Under the pieces are notes generated by a model. It was not told the origin of the DNA. It did not search any database and was given only the letters and a program-made list of their open reading frames with translations. From Escherichia phage MIZ4, in sequence record OR167180: DNA of 64,000 bases; one strand, 5' to 3'. Below, piece by piece: positions 3,318 through 47,454 of the stretch (its first letter is position 1; each line of letters opens with the position of its first letter). Made by a program: the position numbers and the translations under genes.

Positions 3318-4004
3318 TTAGTCGGTGTAGCTGGAGTCAAGGTCACACGCGATCATATAAGATACGGTTTCACTTGCCAGCCATACAGCCTTACGGCGAG
3401 TGAAGCTCAGTTTGTAATCGCCGAAGTCAGTAGCAACCAGTTTCATGTTATCTTTACGAATAAAGAAATGGAAGTCTGCGGTTCCGGTATATTCGCCCAT
3501 ATCAAGACAAAACATCTCATTAGGATTATTTTTGTCAATCTCTTCCCAACCTTTGATCATCAGACGACCATCAATCGGAAGAAATTCAAGGCGGTCCACT
3601 TTAAGCTGATTGCTCATTTTCATAAGCTGTTTCAGATCGTCGTTGCTCAGTTCGTAATCTACATCGCTTGCAGGTGGAGTAACTCGGCCTTTCGGTGATA
3701 CGATAGCGGCAGCACTAGCACCAGGATAATTAATTTTCAGACGATCATTAGACACACGAATGTTTCCGGTGCGGTCATCAACCGTAATATCTGCTTCATC
3801 GCCCACCAGATTCAGAATACCCAAGAAAGAGTTAAGATCATAGATCCCAATTTCGTGTTCCAGTTCTTGATTCAGAGTCGCTTCACCATATACAACGTTT
3901 GTCATGTTTTTGGTGATCAGGACGTTTCCTTTTTTCAGGATGATACCTGGGTTAATAGCGGAAAAGTTTTTCAGGGTAGCAATGGTTTCTTTAGTCAGTT
4001 TCAT
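3318..4004 (-). CDS. 45: sliding clamp gp45
   Basis: 228 aa; MKLTKETIATLKNFSAINPGI versus T4 MKLSKDTTALLKNFATINSGI; IYDLNSFLGILNLV. Confidence 0.85.
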   Translation of the reverse strand: MKLTKETIATLKNFSAINPGIILKKGNVLITKNMTNVVYGEATLNQELEHEIGIYDLNSFLGILNLVGDEADITVDDRTGNIRVSNDRLKINYPGASAAAIVSPKGRVTPPASDVDYELSNDDLKQLMKMSNQLKVDRLEFLPIDGRLMIKGWEEIDKNNPNEMFCLDMGEYTGTADFHFFIRKDNMKLVATDFGDYKLSFTRRKAVWLASETVSYMIACDLDSSYTD

Positions 4005-4034
4005 CAAATCACCTTTATCATGTTAATCAATTAA

Positions 4035-10106: not shown

Positions 10107-10340
10107 TTATTTTACCTCTGGGATATAATCAATTATTAAAGAAAATTCATCTTCTGATACATTATAGCTATGTGAGATTGTACCCGTCAAGACCTCAAGA
10201 TCCGGTGATTTGATATTGCACGGATCGATAATCACCGGAACGCCGCAATCTCTCAAAAATAATTTGGCGAAATACGGCACAAGGTCAGTTTCAAACTCTG
10301 CTTCTTCCAGCAAACGGGAAATGTTAATTTTCAATCTCAT
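10107..10340 (-). CDS. hypothetical protein
   Basis: 77-aa ORF. Confidence 0.35.
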
Positions 10341-10857
10341 AAAATTGGTCCAGGCTAGGCAATTCCTCGGTCAATACATCTTCAACCTTTGGCGCTTTCG
10401 GTTTATTGACCGATTCCTCGTAGTTGTTGATTTTATCGTAAATGTCCTGTATGAATGCCTCATCAGCAATCTGGCACATATCAGCGTCGCGTTCGTCATA
10501 TACATGATGCACAAAATATTTGTATTTTGCGGCTGTCGCTGTTCTTTCTTTTTTAATGCGCTGCACAAAAGCATTAAAGCACGCTTGCGTGATGTAAGCA
10601 TGAGGATTTTTATACTTTGTCTCGTCAAAATTAATCAAACCCTTGACCGCCGCTTCGATTCCATCGTCGATCATTTCTTCGCGCCATGTTTGACTATAGC
10701 CAGAAAAGTTAAAACGCCGTGATAGATTTTTAGAGATTTGCATAATTGCCAGGCCGATTTGGTCACTCATTGGCACTTGCCGACCTTCTGCTGCAATTCG
10801 TTGTTTCCAACGGCAAATTTCTTCGTAAAGCTCTTTATTGTTTACATAATCAGACAC
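10324..10857 (-). CDS. 55: late-transcription sigma factor gp55
   Basis: [70 protein letters not shown] match T4 gp55. Confidence 0.85.
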
Positions 10858-10897
10858 TTCGCACCCTCGCTATTATTTAGGAAATAACCCTTTCGGG

Positions 10898-42997: not shown

Positions 42998-43014
42998 CAC
43001 CTAAAAACAAAAAA

Positions 43015-45063: not shown

Positions 45064-45252
45064 TACTGATTCCTCAAATGAAAATATTTATTAACAATTG
45101 TCGCTTTGCGACGTGCCGTAGGCACTGACTACTTTTTAACCGAAACAAATTTTTATTATTCTAAAGATCTTTCTTCGTTTTGGTTATGTTTTAACCAATA
45201 ACTATATTTTTATACAGTAATAAATAAAACGGGTACTATACGAGGACTTCTT

Positions 45253-45507
45253 ATGACAGAAGACATTTTGTTAAAACTCTATGATCGTTTGGATAACGAA
45301 TTAGCAACATTGCGGGGTGAAGTTCTCTATTTGTCGAAATGCAATACAGATCTGCTTAAGCAGATTGCAGAAAGGGATGATCAAATAAAATCCCTTTCAG
45401 GTGCATTACGTGATCGCGACAAGGCATTAGAGATTTTACAGCGTGTTACCAATAAGGAAGAATTAAAAGACTTCTTACATGGTTATGCTCATGCCATCGA
45501 TCTATAA
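45253..45507 (+). CDS. hypothetical coiled-coil protein
   Basis: 84-aa plus-strand ORF between 3 and 2; followed by hairpin 45514-45532. Confidence 0.35.
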   Translation: MTEDILLKLYDRLDNELATLRGEVLYLSKCNTDLLKQIAERDDQIKSLSGALRDRDKALEILQRVTNKEELKDFLHGYAHAIDL

Positions 45508-45513
45508 TAAAAA

Positions 45514-45532
45514 AGCCCGTCATTGACGGGCT
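45514..45532. terminator. hairpin terminator between convergent genes
   Basis: AGCCCGTCA T TGACGGGCT with A-run on one side. Confidence 0.5.
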
Positions 45533-45537
45533 TAATC

Positions 45538-46370: not shown

Positions 46371-46844
46371 CTATTTGTTAAGCCCTTTAAAACCAAACAC
46401 TTTCTTTAATGCATGTTCGGTTATGATCTTAAACTCCATGTTATGCTTTTGGCATAATTTCACGGCAGCTAACCATTTTTCAGTATTTTTTGTGTACGTC
46501 CACACTTCATGCATATATCGTTGCTTTGTCTTCGCGGTCATTCTTTTTGGCTTTTCCGGTGGCCTTGTCTCTTTAGCTGGTTTAACTTCCCATAAATGCT
46601 CCTTGCCATCATCAAACTTAACGTAAAAATCCATAAAGTATCTGTGTCTTTTCCCGTCTGTTGATGACTCATAAGGAATTACTACGGTCTCAGATCCCCA
46701 TTTTGCAACTCTAGGATTGCGGTCTAGCCACTGCATGATCCATCTTTCCCAGCTTGAACGGTATGTGATCTTACGTATATCCCCTTTATACTTTTCCTTA
46801 TTCTCAGGAACATACTTGCCCTTATAAGTGTTAGATCCTCCCAT
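46371..46844 (-). CDS. 4: head completion protein gp4
   Basis: YKGKY.P.N..KYKGD...ITYRSSWE, YFMDF.VKFD, EVKP.KET.PP.KP.RMT, FKI.TE match T4 gp4. Confidence 0.85.
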   Translation of the reverse strand: MGGSNTYKGKYVPENKEKYKGDIRKITYRSSWERWIMQWLDRNPRVAKWGSETVVIPYESSTDGKRHRYFMDFYVKFDDGKEHLWEVKPAKETRPPEKPKRMTAKTKQRYMHEVWTYTKNTEKWLAAVKLCQKHNMEFKIITEHALKKVFGFKGLNK

Positions 46845-46859
46845 TTTAGCACCCTTTAT

Positions 46860-46867
46860 TATAAATA
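46860..46867 (+). promoter_or_regulatory. T4-type late promoter TATAAATA upstream of gene 53
   Basis: exact TATAAATA about 32 nt before the gp53 ATG in the divergent 4/53 intergenic region. Confidence 0.6.
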
Positions 46868-46899
46868 CATAATACTATTTATCAATTGAGGGTGCTAAA

Positions 46900-47454
46900 A
46901 TGCTCTTTTCTTTCTTCCCTGCCATTGAATACAACGGCAAGATGATTACTGACATTGTGCGCAATTACCGCGCATATTTCAACGCAATAATTTCTGATTA
47001 TAACATACAAACATATTACATTCAAGGTAGTCCACGACCGGAACAAGTTGCATATGAAGTATACGGAAACCAACAACTTTACTGGATCTTGCTGATGCTT
47101 AATGACGTATACGATCCGTTCCATGACTGGATCACCGATCAAGAGACAGCATATGAATCAGCCGAACAACGATATGCAAATGTAGGAGGAAATCAAGTAT
47201 TATACCACGTTGATATTGACGGAAACAAGTATTGGAATCTTACCGAATATCCGAAAGGATCAAGCAATTGGTATGATAAAGGGGATATTCATCATCGTCA
47301 TTTGCAGTTTCAAGGTGCATTATCGGCGGTAGACACACTGGAAGATGCGATCCTCCGCAATGAGGAACGACGCAAGATCAAGATCATAGATCCTACACAA
47401 ATTAAACAATTTATTAACGCATTCATACGAGAAATGGAAAAGGCTGATGTGTAA
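46900..47454 (+). CDS. 53: baseplate wedge protein gp53
   Basis: MLFSFF.AIEY, YYIQGSPRPE, QLYW.LLM.ND.YDP...WIT.QE.AY, KIKII match T4 gp53. Confidence 0.85.
   Translation: MLFSFFPAIEYNGKMITDIVRNYRAYFNAIISDYNIQTYYIQGSPRPEQVAYEVYGNQQLYWILLMLNDVYDPFHDWITDQETAYESAEQRYANVGGNQVLYHVDIDGNKYWNLTEYPKGSSNWYDKGDIHHRHLQFQGALSAVDTLEDAILRNEERRKIKIIDPTQIKQFINAFIREMEKADV

Follow-up and report, generated by a model that had tools for sequence, protein, structure and literature searches.

Genes 4 and 53 and the inverted repeat between them

The locus analysed here lies within a 64,000-nucleotide stretch of Escherichia phage MIZ4 DNA (the window, from whose first letter positions are counted) and consists of two divergent genes and the short region that separates them. 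The original prediction had named these genes 4 and 53, and their open reading frames (ORFs), together with matches to PHROG 218 and PHROG 232, confirm the assignment (Table 1). Gene 4 is annotated as head closure in both MIZ5 and RB49, the gene 53 product is 51% identical to T4 gp53 (tblastn), and the pair is flanked by gp2 on its left and gp5 on its right. Over the 1,084 bases that span both genes, the window is 100% identical to Escherichia phage MIZ5 and 98–99% identical to RB49, Phi1, JSE and GEC-3S; these five phages belong to Krischvirus, the RB49-like 'pseudo-T-even' phages. In the annotation of the near-identical MIZ5, a late sigma factor is found at 10325-10858 and a polymerase processivity factor at 3319-4005. 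Both the sigma factor and the sliding clamp are encoded within the window, and the gp33 gene is located beyond it.

Table 1. Features of the gene 4/53 junction, in window coordinates
Feature	Position	Strand	Details
Gene 4, head completion/head closure protein	46371-46844	-	157-aa ORF; PHROG 218 (head closure), E 6e-61
Left arm, gene 4 translation initiation region	46842-46855	-	minus-strand reading is AGGGTGCTAAA + ATG
TATAAATA, predicted gene 53 late-promoter box	46860-46867	+	8/8; 32 nt from box to ATG
Spacer CATAATAC between the boxes	46868-46875	.	8 bp; holds the symmetry centre and both predicted start points
GATAAATA, putative gene 4 late-promoter box	46883..46876	-	7/8; 31 nt from box to ATG
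Right arm, gene 53 translation initiation region	46889-46902	+	AGGGTGCTAAA + ATG
Gene 53, baseplate wedge subunit	46900-47454	+	184-aa ORF; PHROG 232 (baseplate wedge), E 2e-64

The outer parts of the intergenic region, together with the two start codons, form an inverted repeat. Direct reading of the sequence and a repeat finder agree that its 14-nt arms, CATTTTAGCACCCT on the left and AGGGTGCTAAAATG on the right, are exact reverse complements, as had been claimed, and the ORF starts bear out the further claim that both genes begin with AGGGTGCTAAA-ATG. Each arm comprises the Shine-Dalgarno (SD) sequence, the spacer and the ATG of its own gene, the left one including the CAT that represents the start codon of the minus-strand ORF. 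At 89% complementarity the arms lengthen to 19 nt (46842-46860 and 46884-46902), and the whole 61 bp from 46842 to 46902 are 83% self-complementary. This is the sole perfect inverted repeat in the 64 kb with arms of at least 12 nt and a spacer of at most 80 nt; first-order Markov simulations gave an expectation of 0.3 such repeats, and of 0.04 when arms of at least 14 nt were required. The inverted repeat is real and non-random.

Given that ribosome sites resemble each other in any case, we compared gene starts with one another, taking the 11 bases before the start codon at 107 annotated gene starts and analysing all 5671 pairs. These statistics were computed on the MIZ5 locus itself, because a 1-nt homopolymer indel near 43009 offsets its coordinates from those of the window, so that the two sequences are not base-for-base the same. 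All 11 bases were common to 21 of the 5671 pairs (0.37%). The 20 identical pairs other than 4/53 come from two multi-copy early-gene families, whose members carry their repeated ribosome sites as direct repeats before early genes; in this genome it is common for different genes to have the same ribosome site. No further copy of the 14-mer with fewer than two mismatches was found in the window, nor any with two or fewer in an additional 50 kb of MIZ5 that includes the main structural genes, and across the 114 kb examined the 14-mer was found at no other gene. Exact matches in IMG/VR (at least 120, unrelated and single) are uninformative, since a 14-base sequence is expected to give such hits by chance in so large a database. 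Literature searches for an earlier description of the 4/53 palindrome, and for T4 transcription-start maps of the 4/53 junction, returned nothing usable.

Candidate late-promoter boxes between the arms

T4-type late promoters depend on gp55, gp33 and the gp45 sliding clamp. They lack a -35 element and carry the 8-bp box TATAAATA roughly one helical turn before the transcription start (PMC2988020), and the box has been placed at -13 to -6 (PMC1524935). The original prediction had pointed to an exact late promoter on the plus strand of the core between the arms and to near-matches on the minus strand. Both are present, the exact box as TATAAATA and the principal near-match as GATAAATA, at the positions given in Table 1. 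It had also centred the symmetry of the region on TATAAATA; we find instead that the centre of the palindrome, at ~46872, falls between the two boxes, inside the 8-bp gap that separates TATAAATA from GATAAATA. Like T4-type late promoters, both boxes lie upstream of orthologues of T4 late genes. Unlike them, the minus-strand box carries a G at -13, its single deviation, where T or A is usual; this is the least conserved and most tolerant position of the box, occupied by A or T (PMC1524935, PMC2988020). Both promoters, and especially GATAAATA with its G at -13, are predictions.

From the -13 to -6 rule we infer transcription starts at ~46873-46874 on the plus strand and at ~46870 on the minus strand. 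The boxes are crossed, in the sense that each adjoins the ribosome site of the opposite gene, the gene 53 box that of gene 4 and vice versa. Each predicted transcript would consequently begin just ahead of the opposite box, the two overlapping by ~4 nt, and the predicted leaders of 26-27 nt would each carry the complement of the other box. In the window the heptamer ATAAATA is under-represented, with 12 occurrences found against 25 expected and at least 12 in 100 of 100 shuffles. Given that the motif is avoided, coincidence is an unlikely explanation for two copies on opposite strands with 8 bp between them.

Published promoter predictions for related phages bear on both boxes. In RB49, a plus-strand late promoter, Pl:64518 (+), has been predicted (PMC1524935 Additional File 5) that corresponds to window positions 46834-46876, and no minus-strand promoter was called at 4/53 by the hidden Markov model (HMM) of that study (PMC1524935). 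In RB69, a divergent late pair, Pl:80613(+) and Pl:80684(-), had already been predicted (PMC1524935 Additional File 5), and we find that it sits at the 4/53 junction, where gene 4 starts at 80626 and gene 53 at 80688. A divergent, overlapping pair is therefore predicted at the orthologous RB69 junction (PMC1524935), as in the window, and the crossed late-promoter pair is a known kind of element, previously predicted at that junction. What sets the region apart from the RB69-type pair is that most Krischvirus palindromes reach outward from the boxes and perfectly cover both ribosome sites. The region supports a predicted late promoter for gene 4 on the minus strand that the HMM scans of RB49 missed.

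These observations illustrate a design rule of T4-like phages in which the boxes of divergent late genes are crossed and packed into ~50-60 bp. Such packing makes the region intrinsically palindromic, the complement of the opposite promoter being contained in each leader. With moderate confidence, we propose that 46842-46902 would serve genes 4 and 53 as a compact late control region acting in both directions, in which two T4-type, gp55-dependent late boxes on opposite strands, crossed and 8 bp apart, would each direct a late transcript whose 26-27-nt leader ends in SD, spacer and AUG. The two ribosome sites would act independently, each on its own mRNA, and the perfect identity of the arms would be a by-product, a Krischvirus-specific extension of the palindromic region that has no function of its own.

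Conservation of the boxes and variability of the arms

We compared 60 loci from IMG/VR with T4, RB69 and Morganella phage MP1, obtaining 44 junctions with defined starts. Most of the 44 share the layout CAT - CCTCC-like - [T/A]ATAAATA - 7-12 nt - TATTTATA - GGAGG-like - ATG. This box-pair layout is seen in T4, RB69 and MP1 and is absent in a few lineages; TATTTATA takes the position of the minus-strand box in the same three phages and in most other T4-like loci. Outside Krischvirus, the arms, by contrast with the boxes, are generally unrelated, and genes 4 and 53 use dissimilar ribosome sites. Among 25 representative lineages, with Krischvirus excluded, a junction's own arms pair no better than swapped arms (permutation p = 0.22). 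Junction hairpin energies across lineages lie between -4 and -21 kcal/mol. Outside Krischvirus the stem consists mostly of SD paired with anti-SD, together with the box palindrome; pairing of SD with anti-SD is expected of any divergent gene pair. An exception to the general dissimilarity of the arms is a group typified by locus L029, which has perfect 12-bp arms (CATAGTGCCTCC and GGAGGCACTATG) and whose relatives (L033, L036, L041 and L044) are each one indel or substitution short of perfect.

Comparison of the junction with that of T4 and its relatives had been named as the check on whether the symmetry coordinates expression of the two genes. Part of the original interpretation stands: genes 4 and 53 share a control region, and the symmetry of the boxes recurs in most junctions. 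By the refuting test that the original prediction set itself, the perfect symmetry of the ribosome sites fails in part, being absent from most other genera. The symmetry of the box pair is probably the conserved, functional part of the palindrome, judging from this recurrence.

Within Krischvirus, the 4/53 junction was present in all 58 records of the phage collection. The perfect repeat is the majority state (40/58, Phi1-type phages included) and is broken in the other 18 (31%), in one arm only and uncompensated; RB49 itself and 17 further records thus fail to preserve the perfect repeat even among close relatives. In 14 of the 58, including RB49, JSE, ECD7, KFS-EC and ELT4, the C at 46895 in the right arm is replaced by A. 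The remaining four appear to carry one additional T, confined to the left arm; it was read directly in Delraymugoa, and 102-nt alignments at 99.0% identity point to it in the other three. Both variants fall in the spacer between SD and AUG, and both break pairing. The 33-bp core is invariant in the eight of eight records that were read directly, and 56 of the 58 records are at least 99% identical over 101 bp; in JK32 the single difference is located in gene 4. Such one-arm variation, to judge by these alignments, is the pattern expected of plain ribosome sites and not of a maintained stem, and the spread of the palindrome over the ribosome sites appears to be dispensable.

One record might have suggested strong purifying selection on the junction. 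JEP8 is only 89% identical to the window over the 1,084-bp 4/53 query, and its intergenic region is fully identical. This interpretation was rejected, because the divergence of JEP8 is confined to one mosaic patch in gene 4 (46455-46813) and the rest, gene 53 included, is ~99.7% identical.

We also considered whether selection acts on the sameness of the two ribosome sites as such, either to equalize initiation of gp4 and gp53 or to expose both mRNAs to one trans-acting factor such as a repressor or nuclease. The predicted leaders are alike over ~28 nt with one indel allowed, TATTTAT(C)AAT(TG/AA)AGGGTGCTAAAATG, the 14-mer is otherwise unused in the DNA examined, and the phage encodes RegA-like and RegB-like proteins, all of which would accord with such selection. 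Much of the extended similarity of the leaders, however, is imposed by the crossed layout, because each leader holds the complement of the other's box. Natural variants alter one site only, other genera have unrelated sites for genes 4 and 53, and we know of no stoichiometric link between gp4 and gp53. Nor do the candidate factors fit well, since GGAG, the target of RegB, is absent from the arms and the targets of RegA have been described as early mRNAs (PMC3014915). We regard selection for identity as improbable. The perfect repeat is nevertheless statistically unusual and the majority state of the genus, which leaves room for weak selection that may have acted on it.

Pairing of the arms and the origin of their identity

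The anatomy of the junction also fits, exactly so in our folding models, a hairpin that gates translation in both directions. RNA started outside the repeat would pair the arms and bury the downstream SD and AUG, and late transcripts started within the loop would escape this pairing and be translated. The gene silenced in this way would be gene 53 on one strand and, on the other, gene 4 or the homing endonuclease that takes its place in some relatives. Read-through RNA from either strand is predicted to form one hairpin that hides SD and AUG (-26.3 to -28.5 kcal/mol, z -4.7 to -7.1), and 0 of 200 shuffles fold as well. RNAs beginning at the predicted late starts, which are themselves inferred points, have no significant structure in the same models (z ~-0.4), because each late box lies downstream of the 5' arm. 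There is precedent for this arrangement in T4 e, soc, 49 and I-TevI, in which the initiation region is masked by a hairpin with an internal late promoter (PMC3014915). As in those genes and in Aeh1 mobE, the 3' arm here holds SD and AUG, and the late boxes occupy the loop, as in the reviewed T4 cases (PMC3014915). In six relatives, moreover, the left arm serves an inserted, free-standing ORF for an HNH homing endonuclease (231 aa) in place of gene 4, and homing endonuclease genes of such class have been reported to be gated (Aeh1 mobE and T4 segB; PMC3014915).

Such a gate would act on read-through RNA, a source of which we did not find among annotated genes, promoter predictions or the matches of a sigma-70 scan. 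All annotated genes from 46900 to the end of the window are on the plus strand, and in RB49 no minus-strand early promoter is predicted from 60.7 to 98.4 kb (34 kb upstream; PMC1524935). On the other side, the closest gene on the plus strand (45253-45507) is preceded by a box of late type, and a hairpin and 1.3 kb of antisense genes come after it. Scanning for the sigma-70 consensus yielded 23 matches where 19 were expected, which is not above shuffle expectation and therefore lends no support to upstream promoters.

The differences from the T4 e, soc, 49 and I-TevI hairpins are thus threefold: neither a gene in the same orientation nor a predicted promoter lies upstream that could provide the masked RNA, a single repeat would have to serve both strands, and pairing is neither conserved nor compensated. 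The last point draws on both comparisons above, pairing being broken without compensation in 31% of Krischvirus records and matched arms showing no excess complementarity in other genera, where the stem is mostly SD against anti-SD. On this evidence we consider a two-way gate unlikely, and we place slightly less belief again in a gate with the crossed promoters in its loop that is perhaps favoured where a homing endonuclease uses the left arm. If true, it would extend the mechanism of T4 e and I-TevI to both directions, and would join the small set of hairpin-gated T4 late genes as a bidirectional case.

A further explanation is that the repeat acts as DNA, by forming a cruciform, serving a dimeric DNA-binding protein as its operator, promoting recombination as a hotspot or contributing to the target of the homing endonuclease that inserts here. 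The overall self-complementarity of the 61 bp would suit such an element. In two genera, moreover, an HNH endonuclease gene is inserted at the gene 4 ATG junction, and within gene 4 mosaic patches stop 3 to 30 bp from the left arm. However, 47 bp separate the centres of the arms, an atypical distance for an operator, and indels are tolerated in the arms. The intergenic sequence is the same with or without the endonuclease gene, the divergent patch (presumably immunity) lies within gene 4 and not within the repeat, and the other genus with the same endonuclease insertion has no arm complementarity (L027, -7.9 kcal/mol). We judge a DNA-level role highly improbable, and we found no evidence for either the recombination element or the DNA structural element that the original prediction had offered as possibilities.

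A related proposal, that the left arm arrived together with the endonuclease, was rejected. Two endonuclease-free loci of the nearest genus (L017 and L024) have a homologous gene 4 left arm, and the lack of arm complementarity in the other insertion-bearing genus also speaks against it.

Returning to the compact bidirectional control region with independent ribosome sites, the identity of its arms would have arisen from two similar ancestral sites (AGG..TAAAATG) through few changes, whether these came about by chance or through correction of a quasi-palindrome by template switching. The nearest genera offer candidates for both precursors: the gene 4 arm is CATTTTAGATCCT in L017 and L024, and the gene 53 arm is GGGGGTAAAATG in L043. 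As relatives already carry similar single arms, few steps would be needed to reach identity.

Template switching renders quasi-palindromes more perfect, as was first seen in T4 rIIB (Ripley 1982; PMC7202029), and by analogy it is a plausible driver of arm identity here. As in quasi-palindrome mutagenesis, the repeat is perfect in some strains and one base or indel off in close relatives, a pattern observed in two independent cases, Krischvirus and the L029 group. Unlike in the known process, no multi-base templated change was observed. Template switching would in any case account for the origin of the repeat and not for a function.

RB49- and phi1-type phages also contain PeSL cassettes, in which short regulatory sequences bearing ribosome sites are repeated verbatim before different genes, much as the 14-mer is. 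The PeSL promoter is an early one. The junction differs from these cassettes in being a single inverted pair at late core genes that matches neither early ribosome-site family, and membership of the cassettes was rejected, given that the 14-mer lacks further copies in the 114 kb and lies outside both families. Two reports describe PeSLs as composite promoter-terminator motifs that mediate shuffling in variable (hyperplastic) regions (PMC2839356, PMC4122927).

The perfect mirror image of the ribosome sites is Krischvirus-specific and polymorphic, and most likely without a function of its own. What Krischvirus adds to the common layout is a measure of how far the palindrome can spread from the boxes, to the full 61 bp and with perfect pairing over both ribosome sites. 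For annotation, the data support adding a second, predicted late promoter on the minus strand for gene 4. The layout is not confined to this junction: the same crossed arrangement of boxes occurs at inh/uvsW in MIZ5.

Endonuclease insertion and mosaicism at the start of gene 4

The start codon of gene 4 (window 46842-46844) is the exact insertion point of an HNH homing endonuclease gene in six Krischvirus records. The inserted gene encodes 231 amino acids, with a NUMOD3 motif and the N-terminus MDYQKHYERL. In the Krischvirus records that carry it, the left arm of the repeat becomes the ribosome site of the endonuclease, and the start of gene 4 lies 1 nt within the stop codon of the endonuclease gene, behind a new ribosome site, GGTGGTATAATG. 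A related ORF of 217 amino acids (N-terminus MDYQRHYNSL) lies at the identical junction in a second genus (L027 and L035, upstream of 1151), and the same left arm is retained in relatives of these two without the endonuclease (L039 and L040). L052 carries a shorter ORF of the same endonuclease type (129 aa).

The adjoining 5′ region of gene 4 is a mosaic hotspot. Differences between the endonuclease-bearing phages and the window fall mainly within 46727-46839, and phage JEP8 has a distinct replacement patch, ~32% divergent from the window, between flanks that are ~99.7% identical. These patches resemble tracts of co-conversion or of target immunity connected with the homing endonuclease.

Locations of features in the window and in retrieved loci
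Feature	Location	Strand	Remarks
HNH endonuclease insertion	L006 1474-2169		Brandy
HNH endonuclease insertion	L012 809-1504		ELT4
Gene 4 mosaic region	window 46455-46839		
JEP8 replacement patch	window 46455-46813		
Sigma-70 match	window 46885..46858	minus	TTGATA - 16 nt - TATAAT
Mini-ORF of predicted gene 4 transcript	window 46870..46859	minus	AUG UAU UUA UAA
Small ORF, 84 aa	window 45253-45507	plus	between gene 3 and gene 2; weak DUF7615 match only
GC-rich hairpin	window 45513-45533		
Ribosome-site family GAGGATTATATTATG	ends 19740, 20973, 21597, 25106, 26677, 27783 (examples)	minus	at least 6 genes; MIZ5 numbering
Ribosome-site family GGAGAATCAAA[A/T]ATG	ends 16079, 25773, 28084, 28367, 40677, 42488, 42932 (examples)	minus	at least 7 genes; MIZ5 numbering

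The 4/53 junction and its counterparts

Another T4-like lineage also has a perfect inverted repeat over both start codons at its 4/53 junction, with arms of 12 bp (CATAGTGCCTCC / GGAGGCACTATG; L029, 1153-1203) and independent of that in the window. Four close relatives of this genome (L033, L036, L041 and L044) are one indel or substitution short of a perfect repeat.

Within the junction of the window, a near-consensus sigma-70 match (11 of 12 positions) overlaps both late boxes. Its TTGATA arises because the gene 4 box has an unusual G at -13, and its predicted start, at ~46851, would be inside the gene 4 Shine-Dalgarno sequence. The late transcript predicted for gene 4 would carry a four-codon mini-ORF at its very 5′ end, a feature that the palindromic spacer may have produced by accident.

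Late-promoter boxes elsewhere

ATAAATA, the heptamer of the late promoter, is rarer than expected in the window as a whole, with 12 copies on both strands against 25 expected; at least 12 were present in each of 100 shuffles. The exact TATAAATA occurs only four times in the whole window. These counts would fit a selective pressure against spurious late promoters. The divergent inh/uvsW junction of MIZ5 (L196, 17231-17257) has the same crossed layout as 4/53, TATAAATA - 11 nt - TATTTATT, and has no matching ribosome sites. In a group of T4-like contigs of ~175-180 kb (L017, L019, L021, L024, L025 and L069), the 4/53 junction (~1150-1200) reads CCTAAATATAG... and contains no TATAAATA/TATTTATA pair; the late promoters of genes 4 and 53 in this group are either deviant or located elsewhere.

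Reused ribosome sites and a small ORF

Many early ORFs on the minus strand (window ~15900-42900) share their ribosome sites verbatim, in two families, with identity sometimes extending over 13-20 bases. Both families are probably part of the PeSL mobile regulatory cassettes described for RB49/phi1 (PMC2839356). The ribosome site of gene 26 in MIZ5 (AAAGGGTGTTTTATTATG; L196, upstream of 20798) is similar to that of gene 4. Across the 50 kb in which they overlap, the window and MIZ5 fall out of register only once, by 1 nt in an A-run near 43009 (AAAAAA versus AAAAA), so that MIZ5 annotation coordinates are 1 higher than those of the window to the left of ~43009.

The small ORF between genes 3 and 2 has a AATAAATA box 26 nt upstream (region 45219-45533), and the hairpin that follows it has the score of a terminator acting on the transcript of gene 2, which runs towards the ORF.
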